Source: Octopus vulgaris
Lineage: Eukaryota
Direction: 5' to 3'
NCBI GenBank assembly: GCA_951406725.2
Contig: OX597815.1
Coordinates: forward strand, 58,528,001 to 58,592,000
Length of the DNA: 64,000 nt
Of the stretch, positions 1-11,427 are shown piece after piece. A model generated the notes under the pieces. That model was not told the DNA's origin and ran no database searches. It saw only the letters and a list, made by a program, of their open reading frames with translations. The stretch's first letter is position 1, and every line of letters begins with the position of its first letter. The translations under genes were made by a program, and so were the position numbers.

Positions 1-2565
1 CCTGTACATGGCTTGCACAGCTCTCACTAACCATTCCTAGTTTTCTCATTGCCCACCTGACAAGTGATTGGGGGACCCTGTCAAAGGCTTTTTCTGAAAT
101 TTACCTTTGGCTAGGTATCTTTCCTGCAGCTGTCTTACCAGAAATATAGCATCAGTGGTGTTTTTCCCTGGCACAAATCCAAACTGCATCTCATCTAAAC
201 TAACTCTCTCCTTAATTAATTGGGCTATGACCCTCTCCGTAACTTTCATTACCTGATCCAATAACTTGATACCTCTGTAATTATTTGTATCTAATGCATC
301 ATCTTTACCTTTGTAGCAGTTGACTATGGTGCTGCTACACCAGTTATTGTGTTTGACTCCTACATGTATCACCTGATTGACTATACATGTGACTAGACTA
401 TAGTTGGCACCGCCAGATATTTTAAGCATCTCTGTGATGATTCCTGATGGCCTTTCCCTGTCTTCATACTCTTAATTGCTTTATCTACCAAGGTACTATC
501 AATTCGGATAACTGGTCCCTCTGTTGGATCGACATTCGGCAAATTCTCTTTCTCCCATTTATTCTCTTCATTTAACAACCTTTCATAGTGGCATCTCCAA
601 GTCTCTCTCCTAGCAGTTTCATTAAATGCAAGTGAGCCATTATCCATGTGGACACACATCTCTCCTATGACATCACAATTCTCTCTCTCATACACTGTCT
701 TGCAACACGAAACACCTCAAGTATGGTCCTCATGACGCAGAACATTGGCAAATTTTTTCTTATCTGCTTCCCCTCTGGCTAAATAAACCTATCTCCTAGC
801 TTCCCTTCTGGCAGTCTGATACAATTCCCTACTATCACCACTCTTCTAGTCCTTCCATGCCTGTTTCTTTTCCCTAATGGCCCTGTTCCACCACCACATT
901 ACCTTGGGTTGAGAGGGGACTTTGCACCATCCACAGATCTGGTCGGTAGCCCTCAACAGGTTGTCTCATAGAAACTTCCAGTTGTCTTTCACATCATGTG
1001 ATGCTATATACCCCTCTATTTTGTAATACGTCTCTAAATCTCTGTCCATTTGCAGGATCCTTAAGCTTCCAGACCCTTCAGCTCCATGCTGGTCATCTGG
1101 GCATCCATTTAGCCCTGATCCTGAAGTTGCTAACTACTAATCTATGTTGTGGGGTGCATTCTACACCTGGGAAGGTTTTGACATTTATAAGTAGCCATCT
1201 TTCCCATTTCCTGGTGAGGATGTAGTCAATTTCACTAGTATGTCTACCAGATCAGTAAGTGAATAGGTGACTGGCAGGTTTCCTGAACTTAGTATTACAA
1301 ATCATAAGATCATTTGCACTGCAGAACTCCAGCAGCCTGGTTCGCTCCTCATTGTGGGAACCAAAACCATAGCCTCCACGTATGCCATGGAAGCCCTCTG
1401 CATGTTGTCAACATGTCCATTAAGGTCACCAGCCACAAAGAGATGGTCCCTGTCACTTGTCAACAAGGTAGTCTGCAAGAGGGTGTCATAAAATCGGTCT
1501 TTCTGCTCATCAGGTAACCCCGGCTGAGGGGCATAGGCCGAGATAATGGTTGCTAACCCCAGTTGCAGCACTAATCTAATCTTAAGTATTCTGTTACAGA
1601 CTCTAACTACTTTGATTACCTTATCAACCCATTTCTCTGCAAGAAGTATACCCACGCCCCCAACCCCATCAGTGTTCCCTGCCCAGAAAATCTTATACCT
1701 GTGTTCTTTGCCTGTGAGGAACCTAGCAGAACTTCTCCTTCACCTTATTTCTTGGATGTAGCACAAATCTACATGTCTCCGTTCAAGCATCTCAACAATC
1801 TCACCAGAGCAGCATCATGTACCTGAAAAGAAAGCTTGCATTTGGCAGAACTCATGAACATACAATAGCCTTCAACCTGCATACGCTACACCATCATTTT
1901 TATGTGCTGCACAATCACATTACATAGGAGATAAACCCTAAGTAGGGATGGGGGAACATTAAGCCTTTAGAAGTGTTCATGGGAGAGACATCTGATAGAG
2001 GTCAGAGGATAGAAACTTCCGGTACAGGTGGTGGGGGTGTGATGGGTAGTCGCACCGAGAAACAGCAAAATCTCGGGCTGTGAGTGTGAGAGAATATTAT
2101 GTTAATTATGAGATAGAATTGGGCATTTGAAATTCCTAACTAAAGCTATAACCAAGAGTTTTGGGACAGCCAAACTGTAACAAAGTAGATAAATGAATAA
2201 GTGATGATAATAAATGAGCGTGATAGAGAGGGAGGAAGAGGGAGAGTTGGATTGAGCGAAGTGATCTTAAGTTTCTTTTTTTTTTAAATATACAGTGTGG
2301 AAGATAAAACTGTATTTCCAAAGATAGATAATGAAATAGAATGAAATGAACTAATAAGGTAATTATGATCTGCGCTGAAAAAAGAGAGGTTTAGTTGTAC
2401 TGGGTTGAAAAACAGGATTGCTTATCTGAACATCTGATTTTCAGCTCCTTTTGGCGAGGTGTTAAAATGAGATAGGGGAATCTGAGTGAGCTAGTTTATA
2501 TAGGGTGGGGGAAGCGGAGATAAAGTGTTGAGAGAAGCAAGTGGTTATCGAAACAGAGAGAGAGA
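1..2565 (-). mobile_element. RTE-clade LINE, 5' half (5' UTR, APE endonuclease, start of RT), frameshifted; runs off window edge
   Basis: ORF pieces GILLAEKWVDKV..SAYAPQ..VAGDLNGH and [29 protein letters not shown] match the 24034-26784 ORF; probable start MSSAKCKLSFQVH at ~1855; 5' UTR shares motifs with 38870-39470. Confidence 0.9.
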
Positions 2566-2829
2566 TATATGTATATATATATATATGTATATACATAGTA
2601 ATACACATAGATGCATATATATATATATATATATATACATCCATATACCCCGCATTACCAATAAATGATATACACACACATATATAAATGAATATAGAGA
2701 TTTCTATAGGCATACTTGTACACATAGTTACATGCATATACACATACACACACACACATATATATATATATACATATATACACATAAAAACATATCCACA
2801 CATATATATATACATACATATATATATTG

Positions 2830-3589
2830 TTATTATATGACCAAACGCACGCGTTGTTTCTCTTCTCCAAGTAAGTTTTTATTTGAATAATCATGACGCG
2901 CACTCTTACTCTTTACTTGACCTTTCCTCCCTGCCTGTCTGTCTTCCTCTCTAATTGTCTCTCACCTTCTTATTTTTCACACTTTCTGGTTTCTTTTCCC
3001 CCCCCTCTCTCTCTCCTCCTCCTCCTCTCTCTGGCTGTTGACCAGAGTGCTACTAAAACTTTCTTTCAGCTCATGCTTTCAACGATTTTTCACATGCGTT
3101 CTAACTAATTTTTCCACCGTCTAGGCCTAAAAAAGCCCTTATTGTTGGTTTTCTTGTCCTGTTATTCTTTATTTGTACTGTTTTTTCTACTGTTTTTTCT
3201 TCATTTGTATTGCTTTTACATCTTGATCTTGTTCTTGTCACTTGTTTTACCCCTCTGCAAAAGAATTTTATTCAATTCCTTTTGCAGGAAGGACTGCTTC
3301 AGCCTGGCCGTGTTCTGCCCTTACCTTCGAAACACGCATTGAGTCGAACCAGGGGCAGCTGATGAAGGGGAATTTTCCTTGTATTGTTTGTCCTGTACTC
3401 TGATTTTTCGTTGTTAAAAAAAGTCCGTTTCCTTGTTTGATTTTATGTTTTCGTTTCTCATTGTGTTCTACGTTTACTTGTGGTGTCCTGTACTCACATA
3501 TATATTTATATATATGCATGTATATATACATATAGATGTAAGTATGTACATATATGTATGTATATATGCATGTTTTATTTATTTATTAT

Positions 3590-3590
<1 letters not shown>
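2830..3590 (+). mobile_element. Non-coding repeat (PLE pseudo-LTR/SINE-like) carrying a rearranged hammerhead motif
   Basis: Homologous to the inverted copy at 3632-4236 (shared cgtctaggc..aaaaa.gccct, ribozyme block, gtcctgtactcacatatat tail); flanked by (TA)n. Confidence 0.65.
3309..3370 (+). ncRNA. Candidate non-circularly permuted hammerhead ribozyme (S-G-C order)
   Basis: CGTGT-T-CTGCCC(TT) ... CCTTC-GAAA-CACG ... (AG)GGGCAG-CTGATGA-AGGGG; stems III and I pair fully, stem II is wobble-rich. Confidence 0.65.
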
Positions 3591-3631
<41 letters not shown>

Positions 3632-3634
<3 letters not shown>

Positions 3635-4236
3635 GTGTAATAAATAAAATATATGCATACATACATACATATATGTACGTACCTACATCTACATGTATAT
3701 ATACATGCATATATAAATATATATATGTGAGTACAGGACACCACAAATAGACGCAGAACTCAACGAGAATGAAAACGTAAAAACAAGCATGGAACGAACC
3801 TTTTTTTACAAAGAAAAAACAGAGTACTAGACAAACTACAGAAGGAAAAATCCCTTCATCAGCTGTCCCTAGTTCAACTCCAGCATGTTTCGAAGGTAAG
3901 GACAGAACACGAATCGTCGAACTAGCCCTTCCTGCGAAGAAATTAAAGGAAATTACTTCGCAGAGGGGTAAAAACAAGGAAAGAACAAAATGTGACACAA
4001 ACAGGACGTAATAACGATACAAATAAAATTACAAAATAAAATACAAAATAAAAATACAATTACAAAAAAATACAATACAAGAAATAAAAACACACAAGAA
4101 AACAACCAAAGAGGGCCTTTTTTGCCTAGACGAGGAGAGATTCAAGGAGCGCAAGAAAACCGTGTGTTTACAGTTAGAAGGCCGCATGCAAAAGTAAGTA
4201 TTTGGCCGGCTGTGAGAGAGATGAGAAGGAGTTAGA
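3632..4236 (-). mobile_element. Second, diverged copy of the rearranged-hammerhead repeat, tail-to-tail with 2830-3590
   Basis: Reverse complement aligns with ~3110-3590 across a central (TA)n. Confidence 0.65.
3851..3911 (-). ncRNA. Candidate non-circularly permuted hammerhead ribozyme, copy 2
   Basis: Minus strand: CGTGT-T-CTGTCC(TT)A-CCTTC-GAAA-CATG...(AG)GGACAG-CTGATGA-AGGGA; C-G to U-A compensatory change in stem I versus copy 1. Confidence 0.65.
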
Positions 4237-4254
4237 TATATATTTATATATATA

Positions 4255-4290
<36 letters not shown>

Positions 4291-4831
4291 CATATATATA
4301 TACACACAAACATATACATATGCATAACAAGATATAGATAGCAGCAGATAAATACAAACAACATGTACCCATGTATACAAATACATATGGATATACACAA
4401 ATATATGATTATTCGTATACACATACATATATGTACAAATATAGACACTTGATAAAATTTTCTAAACACATTTAGAATAGTGTGTACAAGATAGAACACT
4501 CTCAAGTCTTTCATTAAGCAATTTCTTCTTAGATGTTAATATCTGGTATAATTCATCTATAAGTAAGTTGCATCTAGCATCATTAATTTTATATGATCCA
4601 GCATGACTAAGTATTTTCCAATTTATTTTTTATAATTTCTTACTATCATTCAATTTCCAAACTAGTTTACTGAGACTAGTACTGTTAAACCTATCTCTAT
4701 TCCTAAAGGTATACTCAGGGTTTACTATTCATTTGTTGATAAAATTTTCCGTTGACCCTATGTAAAAATAATTTCTTCATTCCAAATCCACCCTACCTCT
4801 ATATACAATATTATTCTGTAAGCGGTGAATG

Positions 4832-5092
4832 TGTAACACCCCAAAAATAGTAAAATGTAGTTGGCAAAAATGTTAATCAAACAGACCAAATTAAAGATTT
4901 TTAATTTTGGGTAAGAGTTTTGAAGTGGCTAGTTTAAGTTGGAATAATTATATGAATAAGAGTGCTCACGTGAAAACAGAGGCAAATTGTAACTCGCAAA
5001 TGAATACTGCTGGCAATACTGTGCAAGCAGTTGATAAGAGCTCACCCCAGCTGACAAAGCATTGATTTTTTTCCAGCTGGGTGTACGTTACA
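4832..5092. mobile_element. Possible short solo LTR or TGT-ended TIR element
   Basis: Starts TGTAACACCCC, ends GGGTGTACGTTACA (imperfect inverted termini); no TSD seen. Confidence 0.3.
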
Positions 5093-5289
5093 TTTTTCGC
5101 TGGCCCAAGCCAAATCCTAGGTGAATTGAGATTAGTCTATTTATGTTGGGGGTGTGGAATTTGGAGGAAAGAATTTTAAGAAAAAGTGTCCTAAGTCAAA
5201 GAGAGCACACATGTCAAATTCGGTGAAATTGAGTTGAAAATTGTAGGAGTAGAAGTGGTTCACACAACACACACACACAGTTTGAGGAA

Positions 5290-5725
5290 TAATTCATAAA
5301 CATTTTTTTCAAATTTAAAAATGCATGCAGGAATAAAATGCATTAGCAAAATGTTTTATGTTATTTGAAAGAGAATTTTTGCTCTACAAGATAGTGTGTT
5401 TTGATTTTTTAATTTTATTGATTTTTGCGTATTTTCATATCATTAAAATGGAATGTCAAGTGAACAAAACTGAGTATTTTGGACACCTTTGCTTTTTGCA
5501 TTTAACCGAGGTGTTAAGCCTTCCAAAGCTGCTTGCGAGATTTGTGCTATGTAAAAAAGCATTTCAAATTGTTCTCCTAGTTTTGCTGCCTCATAACTCC
5601 CTTTGAAATGCAAAAATATGCTCCAGTGGGCATAGATAACAATTATGTAGATAAAAGTAAAGAAAAAATGCTCATGCTTTGAAAATTGATGGAAAGAAAG
5701 TCAGGGAGTTCCCGAATTCAACTTC
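5290..5725 (+). mobile_element. Tc1/mariner transposon remnant (N-terminal HTH of a mariner transposase, frameshifted)
   Basis: From ATG ~5448: MECQVNKTEYFGHL, then shifted LFAFNRGVKPSKAACEICAM, typical mariner N-terminus. Confidence 0.65.
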
Positions 5726-6076
5726 TAATTAGTTATATGTACAAATTTTATCAACATAACCATAATGTACAATGGTGAATTTGCAAACAAGCTAAATTTC
5801 ATTTTAAAAAAATATACATGAGAAAATAAATCTGAGAGGGAAGGAGAGAGAATGACCCAAAATTCCTTAAAAATATTCTTTTTAATTTCAACATAATCAT
5901 ACACCCTTGAAAATGTATCTCTTCCATTGCAAAATATATGCATTTTTCACAGTCATGAAAAAATATAACTGAAGGAGACTCTGTGTGTGTGTTTCCATGA
6001 AATTAAACATGAGAATATTCTCTGTTTAAAGGTATTTTTTTCCAAAACAACCAGTAATATGTTTTGTTTGTCATTC

Positions 6077-8285
6077 AGCATCATCATCATTGCTTAATGC
6101 CTGTTTTCCATCCTGGCATGGGTTGGATAGTTTGACAGGAACTAGCCAGTCAGAGAGCTGTCCAAGTTCCAATTGTCTGTTGTGACATGGTTTCTACAGC
6201 TAGATGCCCTTCCTAATGCCAACCACTTTACAGAGTGCATCTTACATAGCAGTGGCACCTGTAAAGAACTTGCCTGTATGTATGGATGACTGCAATTTTA
6301 CTTAGCATGATGCATCTTCTCGAGTACAGCAAATCGCCATAACTCCTGGTCATTTGTCATTTCCTCAATGAGGTGTAGCATCTTAAGATCTTTTCTCGCC
6401 ACTTCATCCCACGTCTTCCTGCATCTACCCCTTCAATACGTTCCCTCTACAATTAGAGATTGACACTTCTTTACATAGATATCCTCATCCATACGCATCA
6501 CATGACAAAACCAGCACAGGCTTCTCTCTTGCACACAACATCTAATGCTTCTCATACCCGATTTTCATCTTAAATCATTTACACACTGGCATTACCCATC
6601 CAGCAGAGCATGCTAGCTTAATTTCTTTCAAGCCTTAACAAGTCCTCTGTAGTCATAGCCCAGGTTTCACTGCCATGTAGCATGGCTATATGTACACACA
6701 TACAATCTGCCTTTCACTCTGAGAGAGAGGACCTTTGTTACCAATAAAGGTAGCTCTCTGAACCTTGCCCAGCCTATTCTTATTCTAACAACTATGCTTT
6801 CAGAACTTTCTCTTCCACTGCTAATTCAGTTGCCTAGGTAACAGAAGTCATCTACTGGGATTTGAGGAAATCTATTGTCTGCACATTTTTAGTACTTATT
6901 GTACCCACTCATTTGCCACACGAAAAGACTATTTTCTCTCTTAACCTTACTGCAATACAACTACACCTCATGTGTCCAAAGATTGCAGTGAGTTGAGCAT
7001 AGAGAGTTTCTACCAACAGCTTTCTTACATATCAAGTAGGGACTTGTGATTTGTCTGTCTTCCTACATGCTAGGACTTTGGTTTTTGCTAAATTAACTCT
7101 AATGCCAACTTTCAATTAACTGACAGCATCCCTGTACATGGCTTGTATAGCTCTCACTAACCACTCATCTTTCCCTAGTTTCTGTATAGATCACCAGATA
7201 AAGGAGCGGATAATCCTGTCAAAGGCTTTTTCCATGTTGACAAAAGCCAAGTATAGCGGTTTATTTTTGGCTAAATACTTCTCCCTCAGTTGCCTAACCA
7301 GGAATATAATATCGATTGTACTTCTCCTAAGCATAAAACCATACTGCATCTCATCTATGCCAACTCTTTCCTAATTAGTTTTAACTTTCATTACCTGGTC
7401 CAGCAGTTTGATACCTCTGTAATTATGTCTGTCTAAGGCATCACCTTTACCTTTGTAGCAGTTGACTATGGTACTGCTACACCATAGGGTATGACTCTCT
7501 TGTGGACAACCTGACTAGGCCATATCCCACTCTGCAAGATATTTTAAGCGTCTAAGTAATGATTCCTGATGGGCCAAGGGCTTTCCCTGTTTTCATATCC
7601 CTAACTGCTTTATCTACTAAGCTACTGTCAACCTGAATAGCTGGTCCCTCAGTTGGGTCTATATTAGGTAGACTCTCCTTCTCCCATGCATTCTCCACAT
7701 TTAACAGCCTTTCATAATGGCATTTCTAAGCCTTTTTCTTTGCAGAATTACTCACTGCAAGTGAACCATCATCCATGTGGACACATTTCTCCTATGACAT
7801 CATGATTTTTCTCTCACGCACTGTCTTGCAATCCAAAACTCTTCAAGTCTCTAGTCCTCGCTCTGCAGAAGATTGACAAACTTCTTTTCTACTTCTCCCT
7901 TGGCTAAATATACCTGTTTCCTGGCCTCCCTTCTGGCTATCTGATACAGTTCGCTGCTACCACCACACTTCCAGTCATTCTAGGCCAGTTTCTTCTCTCT
8001 AATGGCCCTATCAACTATACTATTCCACCACCATGTCACTTTGGGTTGAAAAGGGACTTTTCACCAGCTACAAATTTGGTCAGTGGCCTTCAACAGCTTG
8101 TCCCGAAGGAACCTCCAGTAGTCCTTCATGTTATATGTTGCAACATTCTCCTCTTTTTCACCAAATGCTTCAAGTCACGTGTCTCTAAATCTCTGACCAT
8201 TCAGAGGATCCTTAAGCTTCCAGACCTTTCTTTTCCTCCTTTGTCTTCTTGATAGCCTTCAAGCCCTGATTCTGAAGTCGCTAAT
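6077..8285 (-). mobile_element. Old degraded RTE LINE with (GAT)n tail and internal deletion
   Basis: Tail catcatcatc at ~6078, 3' UTR motif gatgcccttcctaatgccaaccac, RT remnants homologous to 24034-26784. Confidence 0.85.
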
Positions 8286-10552
8286 AACAATGCTATAGAA
8301 CTTGAGCATATGTGTTGTGTGCTTGTGTATGTGAAATTCCGTCATTTTAAAGGAACAGTGTTTTGTTTAAATTTTTTGTTTTTCGCCTTTTCAATATAAA
8401 CTATAGTGTTAAGGGAAAATTACAGCAAAATTTACAGTTTCAACTCCAGCCACTATAGAATTCTTTCACTTTCCCTTACCTCATTTAATATCTCCAAATA
8501 CCACTCACTTTTTCACCATCTGTTGTATTAGTCTTCCGCCATCAAGTGTGCCAACAAACAAAAGCACATTTATGTTTTATATGTGATTATTTCAATCTTT
8601 CATAAATTTCCTGAGAAAGATGAAAAGATAGAAAAAGAGTCACCCTGTTCTCACTCCCACCCCTATGAAAATGGAGGCCATGATGGTGACAATGAAGACA
8701 AAATAAATTCTTACTTGAGTTTTCCAGCATATTCTAATTCAATTGCACACCTTTCCTTCAAAAAATGTGTGTATTTTTCACAAACTTCAATACCTTTACA
8801 AGTGTGGGATGATATATTATCATATTGGTCCTGTAATTAGAAACATGCGTACAAGAATTATAAAACTGAAGTAAAATAATATAGGAAATATAAAAAAAGA
8901 ATTCTAAAGTATAACTTTATTACTACTAACAGATATTCATTTCTGATCATCTATTAATATTTAAAATGCTTAAACTACCTGAATTAGTTTAAGCAACAAA
9001 ATTAAACAATCATGAAGTGGACTTGTAACCTTACTGTATGAACACTTTGCTTTAAAAGTATTCCTGGAACATTTATCAGTAGATTTTTGTGATATAAAAT
9101 AGGCCATTATCAAAAGTAAACATAGCAAATCTTTTTCTTTTTATCAAAAGCCATTGACCTACTTATAAAAACTGCCAAATGTGTATATTCATGAAATTTG
9201 TAAACTGATAAAAAAATAATAGAACATTTACTGCAAGGAGGATTGTCATAAGTAGTTTAGAAAGTAATTGCTTATATCAACTACCAGTTCTCAGCAGCTA
9301 TCCAATCTGTTAGAGATAAGTTATGTCATCCTCCAAACAAACCTTACAGTCTTTAATAAAGGATGTATAAGACAATGTAGTCCCTGATATACAAACAGGA
9401 AGAAAATGGTCATGATTGTATTGTATTTGACCTGCTCAATCAGGAATGAAGTGGGTTCCACAATATATTCATTAAAAAGATGAACAATATGAAACAGGGT
9501 TTTATGATAATTGTAGCACAATGAATATGACCTACTCAGTATTCAATTCAAATCCTGAAAGATACACTCCACCCATTATTTTTTTCTTATTTATTAACTC
9601 ACAAAACAGTTCTCTACCATAAATAACTGCAACAACTGTCATCAATTCCTGAACTGTATGTAATCACAATCAAATAGTGTTTGTTGTTTTGAGTAAGAAA
9701 ATGGAACTAAGAATTCTTATGCATGAGAAACAAAGCTCTACCTCATTTTAGAAAGAACTTCTTGTCAACAAACTTCCTGCTTGCACTATGTGCATTTTTT
9801 TCTTCTTTTTTGCATTTTATCATGTAAATTTCTCTGGATTTGTCTTCCTTCAACTTTCAAGCATAATATATCAAGCAGTGAGTTAGAATTTGGTGATATG
9901 GTTTTTATTATATTTTTTTTATTTATTAATTATTTACTTAGAGAAAGAAAGTATTAATTGGAGAAAATAATTGATATTTCAATGTCAGCTGTAAGCGCAA
10001 GCTATCTACATGATATCTGAATTTATCAATTCTGTGTAGGAGTAGAATTATCACAAAGTTTATATTATATCAACGTTTTCTTTCAAGATAGGGTTAGTAA
10101 ATGGTAAGGACTAACAAGAAACAATGTACTGATATATTTTAAATGCAGGGTTTCTGCATACTAGTAAGTTTATGAGGAGAGAATAATTATTGCAATAGAA
10201 TAAATAACACTAATAATTTGTTGAGCCTCACAAAACTTCTGAACGGAGGAGATGAAGATATATTTTGGAATGCTTCTTCTAATGGTAGTTGTGCAGCTTT
10301 CAAGTTATAGAAGCTAGATGGACTTTCTGATATAAAGTAAGTCATTATCAAAAGCAAAGATTGCAATAATTTTATCCTTATATCAAAAGCTATCAAACTA
10401 TCTACAAAAACTAACAAATGTGTGTAATCATGAAATTGGTAAACTGGTAAGTTTGCCAATAAAATGGAGTACAAATTCGGCTATGAAATATGAAATTGAT
10501 GCCCAGAAATTAATGCCATGTAAATATGTGTAAAAAACCTACATATATATAA

Positions 10553-10947
10553 AGACACAGGAGTGGTTGTGTGGTAAGTAGCTTGCTTACCAACCACATG
10601 GTTCCAGGTTCAGACCCACTGCATGGCACTTTGGGCAAGTGTCTTCTACTATACCCTCAGGCTGACCAAAGCCTTATGAATGGATTTGGTAGAGAGAAAC
10701 TGAAAGAAGCCTGTCATGTATATGTGTGCGCGCACGCACACGTTCGCCCCCCCCACACACACACACATAACATCGCTTGACAACCAATGCTGGTGTCTTT
10801 ACGTCCCCATAACTTAGTGGTTCAGCAAAAGAGACTGATAGAATAAGTACTAGGATTACAAAGAATAAGTCCTGGGGTTGATTTGCTCAACTAAAGGTAG
10901 TGCTCTAGCATAGCCACAGTCAAATGACTGAAACAAGTAAAAGAATA
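10553..10947 (+). mobile_element. tRNA-derived SINE (octopus type)
   Basis: A-box-like ggttgtgtggtaag, B-box-like ggttcagacc, body gggcaagtgtcttctactata, tail cagtcaaatgactgaaacaagtaaaaga; three copies in window. Confidence 0.85.
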
Positions 10948-11040
10948 TCAATTTACTTGTATTAAACTTATCCTGGCAGGGGAAATAGATGTGACAACAG
11001 TTGAAAATCAACAGCAGGTAAAAACCACATACACAATGTA

Positions 11041-11427
11041 TACTCTTTACTTTTTTACTTGTTTCAGTCATTAGACTGCGGCCATGCTGGAGCACTGCCT
11101 TTAGTCGAGGAAATCGACCCCAGGACTTATTCTTTGTAAGCCTAGTACTTATTCTACTGGTCTCTTTTGCCGAACGGCTAAGTTAAGGGGACATAAACAC
11201 ATCACCATCGGTTGACGAGCAATGTTGGAGGGGACAAACACAGTCACACAAACACATATATACGATGGGTTTCTTTCAGTTTCCGTGTACCAAATCCACT
11301 CACAAGGCTTTGGTCAGCCCGAGGCTATAGTAGAAGACACTTGCCCAAGGTGCCATGCAGTGGGACTGAGTCCGGAACCATGTGGTTGGTAAGCAAGCTA
11401 CTTACCACACAGTCACTCCTGTGCCTA
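11041..11427 (-). mobile_element. tRNA-derived SINE, tail-to-tail with 10553-10947
   Basis: Reverse complement of the same SINE body and tail. Confidence 0.85.

Follow-up and report, generated by a model that had tools for sequence, protein, structure and literature searches.

A 64,000-nt stretch of the Octopus vulgaris genome (contig OX597815.1, positions 58,528,001 to 58,592,000 of the forward strand; here called the window, with coordinates counted from its first base) carries two copies of a hammerhead-type motif in which the conserved blocks stand in reversed order and the chain is predicted to be opened between A9 and G10.1. We consider it quite probable that this is a hammerhead-type RNA, likely self-cutting after U3314, and that its host, a Penelope-like repeat of the non-autonomous kind, likely depends on Naiad-type machinery for its mobility. 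As sequence and covariation show, its strands follow each other as P0, P0b, stem II 5' strand, I-II helix, block S, block G, I-II helix, stem I strand, CUGAUGA and P0'. More cautiously, we lean towards a wider reading, in which the opened-core ribozyme is a seventh natural hammerhead topology, its chain entering and leaving by a four-way junction within the catalytic core. Together with its circular permutant CSG and occasional twisters, it would be the self-cleaving element that all Naiads seemed to lack, active in vivo and numbering thousands of copies in animal genomes.

The motif in the window

A sequence-only reading of the window had placed hammerhead parts here in the order S-G-C, outside types I to III. 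All of these words were found in both copies and in that order: copy A holds CGUGU-U-CUGCCC at 3309-3320, CCUUC-GAAA-CACG at 3324-3336 and GGGCAG-CUGAUGA-AGG at 3353-3368, and the inverted copy B has CUGUCC/GGACAG as stem I words and CAUG as stem III word. The covariation claimed between the two copies is present as base changes, but these reflect the divergence of two different subfamilies (about 78-79% identical). The motif is larger than the span first reported, starting at 3250 in copy A and at 3968 in copy B. The hammerhead core (C3-A9, G12-A14, A15.1-U16.1 and an H17 other than G) is intact in both, with U or C at H17 depending on the subfamily. Block S is followed by block G and then by CUGAnGA, the order of type SGC, and UUA forms a 3-nt linker from stem I to stem II. 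A9 is joined to 10.1 neither directly nor via one or two bases; P0 and P0b intervene, and the 5' strand of stem II lies upstream. The parts of the motifs and of their host repeat are as follows.

2825 to 3594, plus strand: copy A, one full non-coding unit of ~770 bp, Penelope-like tandem repeat, subfamily A (BLAST to other copies; ends approximate)
2871 to 2876, plus strand: donor-like GUAAGU near the unit start; acceptor-like UUUUGCAG ends at 3287 (words 3280-3288); both from sequence only
3250 to 3254, plus strand: P0 5' strand CCCCU, pairing with 3366-3370 (sequence; 94.9% of cells paired; U-A to G-C in one subfamily)
3255 to 3287, plus strand: hairpin P0b, whose last base precedes G10.1 (two-sided changes in 4 of 7 pairs; present in the minimum free energy [MFE] fold)
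3288 to 3292, plus strand: stem II 5' strand GAAGG, G10.1 at 3288, partner 3324-3328 (five Watson-Crick pairs; 16 Naiad loci have a strand of different sequence at this position)
3294 to 3303, plus strand: I-II helix (IIIb) 5' strand, partner 3343-3352 (two-sided changes in 5 of 10 pairs; two mismatches in copy A)
3309 to 3320, plus strand: block S, with stem III strand CGUGU, H17 (U3314; predicted cut 3' of it) and stem I strand CUGCCC
3324 to 3336, plus strand: block G, with stem II 3' strand CCUUC, G12-A14 (3329-3331), A15.1 and stem III strand (sequence)
3343 to 3352, plus strand: I-II helix (IIIb) 3' strand (covariation in family copies)
3353 to 3365, plus strand: stem I 5' strand GGGCAG and core C3-A9 CUGAUGA at 3359-3365 (sequence)
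3366 to 3370, plus strand: P0 3' strand AGGGG, taken for a stem II strand in the sequence-only reading (pairing in family copies)
3595 to 3631, no strand: (TA)n tract common to the 3' ends of copies A and B, likely target site (sequence; copies end in (TA)n)
3627 to 4236, minus strand: copy B, 5'-truncated unit, subfamily B (BLAST, 97% to locus L068; ends approximate)
3852 to 3968, minus strand: copy B motif, with P0 at 3968-3964, hairpin 3963-3932, G10.1 at 3931, H17 at U3906, G12 at 3891, CUGAUGA at 3862-3856 and P0' at 3855-3852, the last with one G fewer than most of subfamily B

A pattern spanning GAAA to CUGAUGA (G-C pattern) matched twice in the window and never in 100 shuffles. Across the 2.8-Gb genome it gave 1,705 exact matches (837 + 868), against 0 for the reversed control; these are counts of exact patterns, so that further families may be missed. 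The prediction that standard descriptors would overlook the motif held: searching positions 1-10,000 of the window with Rfam returned no hammerhead, only microsatellite-driven miRNA matches.

The acceptor-like word ends exactly between hairpin P0b and G10.1, and splicing there would remove P0 and P0b from the motif. Back-splicing that joins A9 to G10.1 was considered and rejected: there is no donor after A9, and the acceptor-like site is absent from most Naiad motifs. A closing helix formed by GCAGGAAGG and UUUUCCUUG was dropped as well, its bases being used in P0b and stem II.

Stem II pairing within the octopus genome

To score the pairings, 32 copies of the window family were picked to cover its subfamilies, from about 75 extracted. 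Under the six-helix model, 94.0% of cells were paired and 53 cells carried two-sided changes, compared with 0 of 500 shuffles as high and 36-46% paired for slid pairings; related copies inflate such counts. Stems I and III around the core, as given in the sequence-only reading, were borne out, being paired with covariation both in family copies and in Naiad motifs.

Stem II, which that reading had built as a G-U-rich helix from the bases after CUGAUGA, fared differently. Since stem II is invariant inside the window family, and the earlier fold and the upstream pairing leave 98.4% and 99.4% of cells paired, respectively, the window family alone leaves the choice between the two models undecided. 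In copy A, the duplex energy is -3.1 kcal/mol for the contiguous and -5.7 kcal/mol for the upstream stem II, and the bases after CUGAUGA also form the 5-bp Watson-Crick helix P0 with the upstream CCCCU. The scaffold needed for the fold lies 14.7 kcal/mol above the MFE fold in copy A and 5.4 kcal/mol above it in L064, a subfamily B copy; in a 128-nt stretch of L064, scaffold and MFE fold are the same. Copy A may therefore misfold, as modelled, and single genomic copies may be dead.

A second, Naiad-type family in the same genome (355 exact matches to its motif) bears on this choice. Most of 40 copies have the upstream partner at one fixed offset; in two of them its far end pairs as U-A in place of C-G, and in nearly all 40 the bases after A9 reach at most two to three pairs. 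By eye, the octopus Naiad consensus in the part of the PMC8557442 supplement drawn on here also shows the order S-G-C, with a stem II strand that pairs at 6 of 6 positions with a strand upstream of S.

The same layout in Naiad elements

Walking from the Naiad-type motif into reverse transcriptase (RT) fragments of the octopus genome led to loci L185 and L189, which have RT and motif on one strand. A short RT fragment used as query found no homologues, and 52 Naiad-like metagenome loci were obtained with an alignment of the L191 fragment and 14 homologues. Those with enough upstream sequence encode an N-terminal GIY-YIG and a C-terminal RT, which is the Naiad order, and a GIY-YIG/RT open reading frame (ORF) was found in the motif carriers L212-L216, L218 and L239.

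With a split descriptor that demands an upstream stem II, the opened form was detected 3' of the RT in 16 of the 52 loci, always in sense orientation (0 antisense; 0 in 100 shuffled sets), or in 16 of the 40 loci whose sequence continues for 400 nt or more past the RT match. The strict split form was not found in the other 36, of which 12 have less than 400 nt there. A second search, requiring stems I and III only, gave 17 sense and 0 antisense matches. An upstream Watson-Crick partner of 5-6 bp opening on G-C was present in 16 of these 17 (1-75 of 500 shuffles as good, each match tested singly), and in 16 of 17 the upstream stem II strand is at once followed by a 6-14 bp I-II helix, whose other strand stands before stem I. 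The exception is L249, which is without an upstream partner; by eye, its 3' untranslated region (UTR) possibly holds a true contiguous type SGC with a weak stem II, and that of L231 possibly another with a weak stem I.

MAFFT alignment across lineages was unreliable, and anchored counts were used instead, over 19 motifs (the 16 loci, the two window copies and L185). G10.1-C11.1, which the search did not demand, occurs in 19 of 19, and positions 2 to 5 of stem II show 3, 3, 4 and 2 pair types. All 19 have the upstream Watson-Crick stem II, whereas only two could form four contiguous stem II pairs, with 28-33 of 76 cells pairing, as by chance. By this count and the second search, the G-U-rich stem II is very likely wrong. 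P0 begins on the base after A9 and the hairpin stops on the base before G10.1, with gaps of 0-1 nt. In 14 of the 16 loci, no more than 6 of 300 shuffled flanks did as well as P0 and hairpin together; L213 and L239, where shuffled flanks were not beaten, lend P0/P0b weak support. As the layout is widespread in Naiad elements, the idea of an independent cephalopod invention was abandoned.

The 3' ends of sister Naiads also carry plain type CSG hammerheads, with a whole block C and an I-II helix (L241:1691, L243:2925). In the supplement of Craig et al. (PMC8557442), the opened form was seen by eye in at least nine places and plain CSG in at least six, with 58 of the 62 occurrences of CTGATGA covered and, for the other core words, 10 each out of 43, 25 and 23; some of the six plain CSG places adjoin nematode entries. 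A twister-P5-like motif occupies the same slot in L223 (3076-3135; E value 0.054, below the gathering score), and the 3' UTRs of L222 and L237 contain a twister-like motif by eye. In an RT tree covering 31 of these 52 loci, the opened form falls into several supported clades, among twister-like and CSG carriers; the octopus row is a long branch of unsure placement. The nearest RT relatives of twister carriers bear the opened hammerhead, which suggests ribozyme swaps.

Two further features of these loci were observed. The 3' UTRs of L217 and L219 share a G+C-rich stretch in the ribozyme slot of sister Naiads, without hammerhead words or an Rfam match. Naiad-like ORFs at L231:482-4306, L233:24-4055, L235:78-2843 and L250:125-1906 encode a C-terminal ubiquitin-specific protease domain after the RT (Pfam UCH PF00443, E values 2e-25 to 2e-30), and L247, L249 and L252 have a similar motif at the C-terminal end.

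Comparison with known hammerheads

The sections of Eckert et al. 2023 (PMC10085705) drawn on here describe six hammerhead permutations, among them type SGC from metatranscriptomes, for which cleavage was shown, and type CSG, of which two sequences from metagenomes were known. Within these sections, no such RNA is reported from genomes of known organisms, except one GCS candidate from a bacterium, and CUGAnGA with its flanking stem strands is taken to be uninterruptible. The octopus motif has in common with types SGC and CSG (HRIMA-1 and variants) the reversed block order, the full core, the short linker between stems I and II and a helix by which these two stems are connected at their distal ends. 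In contrast to type SGC as described there, where block C is whole, block C is split here, with two helices between A9 and G10.1, and the carriers are animal retroelements. Rearranged hammerheads placed in Xenopus repeats by the sequence-only reading could not be traced: the main text of PMC10085705 mentions Xenopus 0 times, and the literature search returned nothing relevant.

According to the parts of Craig et al. 2021 (PMC8557442) consulted, Naiads lack canonical hammerheads, and eight of them, including an octopus element, are marked HHR_half_core; these half cores are left unfolded in that paper. In its consensus sequences we see the motif by eye at the 3' end, including in one HHR_half_core entry. 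Unlike those elements, the window element has no ORF and consists of a ~0.8-kb unit.

The minimal type I hammerheads of Penelope-like elements (PLEs), in the portions of Cervera and de la Pena 2014 (PMC4209133) used here, share the slot in the element, G10.1-C11.1 and the tolerance of an insert at 9/10.1, but have type I order, a one-base insert only and a weak palindromic stem III, and are thought to be dimeric. Single bases are the known natural inserts between A9 and G10.1 and are common there, which suggests that the backbone has room at this point. Non-LTR retrozymes, in the part of Li, Clavereau and Pollet 2026 (10.64898/2026.07.22.740005) drawn on, are likewise non-coding tandem hammerhead units of proposed PLE derivation; the window unit is longer, occurs mostly as dispersed truncated copies and has a non-canonical ribozyme. 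Measured against a retrozyme, a tandem non-coding unit with a type I hammerhead, it is non-coding and partly tandem, but its ribozyme is not type I. The PK hammerhead (Zhan et al. 2024, PMC11300833, in part) is similar in its long-range helix II, its extra helix and its retained G8/G12 active site, and differs in that A9 runs into G10.1, the blocks are not reversed and the connectivity is pistol-like.

The open-access literature searched yielded neither a hammerhead in which helices separate A9 from G10.1 nor one of reversed block order from Naiads or any animal genome. The sequence evidence indicates that the motif is a real, conserved structure and a hammerhead variant outside the six named permutations, and that it likely cleaves itself. 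If true, this would separate CUGAnGA from its stem II strand and break the working rule behind the count of six permutations, place reversed-order hammerheads in animal genomes, and offer an answer to why Naiad elements seemed hammerhead-free. The split descriptor is a new means to find ribozymes missed by Rfam and RNAMotif searches, and a four-way junction at A9/G10.1 would offer a new attachment place for switches on a widely used ribozyme.

Proposed fold and predicted cleavage

In the fold that we propose, the A9-G12 pair, P0, P0b and stem II would be the arms of a perfect four-way junction, with every base paired. If P0 stacks on P0b, A9 would stay beside G10.1, so that the normal II/III stack and the G8/G12 chemistry would be retained; alternative stacking of the junction could serve as an off state. 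As in type SGC, stems I and II would be tied to each other by the I-II helix and the 3-nt linker. Joining A9 to G10.1 would give the same circle of strands as in types SGC and CSG, and the opened form would therefore be a circular permutation of these, with its opening inside block C. One cut per unit would release RNA of unit length from read-through or tandem transcripts. The ends of this RNA may pair again, and ligation might then close it into circles, a route put forward for hammerheads of other Penelope-like elements in the portions of PMC4209133 used here. Reverse transcription of the cut RNA would yield many copies starting just past the cut site.

The pairings could also be as described but with activity residing in a dimer or in two units in tandem, where the loop of one molecule docks on the open strands of another, in the manner of minimal Penelope-like hammerheads. 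The monomer model invites this reading, since stems I and II are pseudoknotted on a rod-like scaffold that must bend back; copies are found in tandem, and dimer action has been proposed for other PLE hammerheads (PMC4209133, in part). We nevertheless hold it to be unlikely: stem III is a stable helix of 4-6 bp with a non-palindromic loop, most Naiad loci have one motif, and the 3-nt linker and I-II helix match those of SGC ribozymes that cut during transcription (PMC10085705, in the sections drawn on).

An indirect sign of cutting comes from the 5' ends of family copies. Among the matches listed, 26 distinct (TA)n-junction starts fall within 30 nt upstream of CCUUC, and by eye 22 of these 26 coincide with the predicted cut or follow it by up to 10 nt, and four are in the 20 nt before it. 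Minus-strand junction places number 147, versus at least 868 copies. For a control stretch upstream of GAAGG the count is 18 of 484 over 30 nt, and the excess of 5' ends just past the predicted cut is roughly tenfold per base. The Naiad-type family leans alike (about 21 of 31 by eye, leaving out four unrelated rows). Most 5' ends lie 5-9 nt past the predicted cut, where T/A microhomology contributes, and the clustering is for this reason suggestive only. Contigs from four public runs, guessed to be RNA, showed no splice joint; one ends at 3314, one at 3315, and others span the site. Self-cleavage after U3314, the position also predicted in the sequence-only reading, is likely.

A slightly less favoured alternative than the dimer, and again an improbable one, is a real fold that does not cut and acts as a hammerhead-derived binding or stalling signal for the reverse transcriptase of the element. 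The established hammerhead structure has a metal site at A9/G10.1, which opening of the chain there could disturb. The contigs that span the predicted cut site would fit this reading, as would the anole Penelope-like element, whose insertion in vitro proceeds without need for cleavage in the part of PMC11167929 drawn on. The whole catalytic core and G10.1-C11.1 are, however, kept over motifs with unrelated stems, related Naiads have intact CSG hammerheads and a twister-like motif in the same slot, and the 5' ends cluster just past the predicted cut. As for a plain type SGC with the G-U-rich stem II, in which the upstream pairing would be an off state, it seems very improbable: CCUUC is able to pair with GGGG in nearly all window-family cells and L231, judged by eye, is possibly a genuine SGC with contiguous stem II, but contiguous pairing stays at chance level over the 19 motifs, the duplex is the weaker one in copy A, and the same bases make P0.

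The host repeat

The link to Penelope-like elements suggested in the sequence-only reading was upheld by (TA)n ends, 5' truncation, tandem units and tails repeating the unit start. The non-coding unit has a period of 763-834 bp in three tandem copies. Copies A and B meet tail to tail across one (TA)n tract and probably represent two insertions. Family copies have a common 3' end, variable 5' truncation, frequently an inverted partial copy, and (TA)n at the end; of the 54 copies whose end could be recognised, 23 carry a short tail repeating the unit start. The window family thus shows the (TA)n target, 5' truncation, partial tandems and optional tail that mark Naiads in the sections of PMC8557442 drawn on.

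The Naiad ORF order, N-terminal GIY-YIG and C-terminal RT, is not found in the family. tblastn of Naiad and Neptune proteins against 120 window-family loci gave only one 38-residue match, and no ORF linked to the family was seen over these loci; among 30 copies retrieved via the 5' part of the unit, 29 have the motif 425-590 nt downstream of the unit start. The unit is therefore non-autonomous, likely mobilised by Naiad-type machinery and presumably descended from a Naiad parent, which was not found. Relatives in viral contigs were not found either. A young Neptune-like family encoding 781 amino acids was rejected as parent because its 3' ends do not match the unit. This PLE family (L097, L102 and others) has many identical 781-aa open frames in the genome; close to the 3' end of the element, hammerhead words of type I-like but degenerate form were seen by eye.

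The 3' end of the unit contains a long AT-rich near-palindrome (3490-3575 and 3648-3735) that is kept in all subfamilies and could be a signal for the reverse transcriptase. Elsewhere in the window, 36-1145 and 7174-8296 are two copies of another repeat, 71-89% alike, and 10553-11426 is a long inverted repeat (85-89%).
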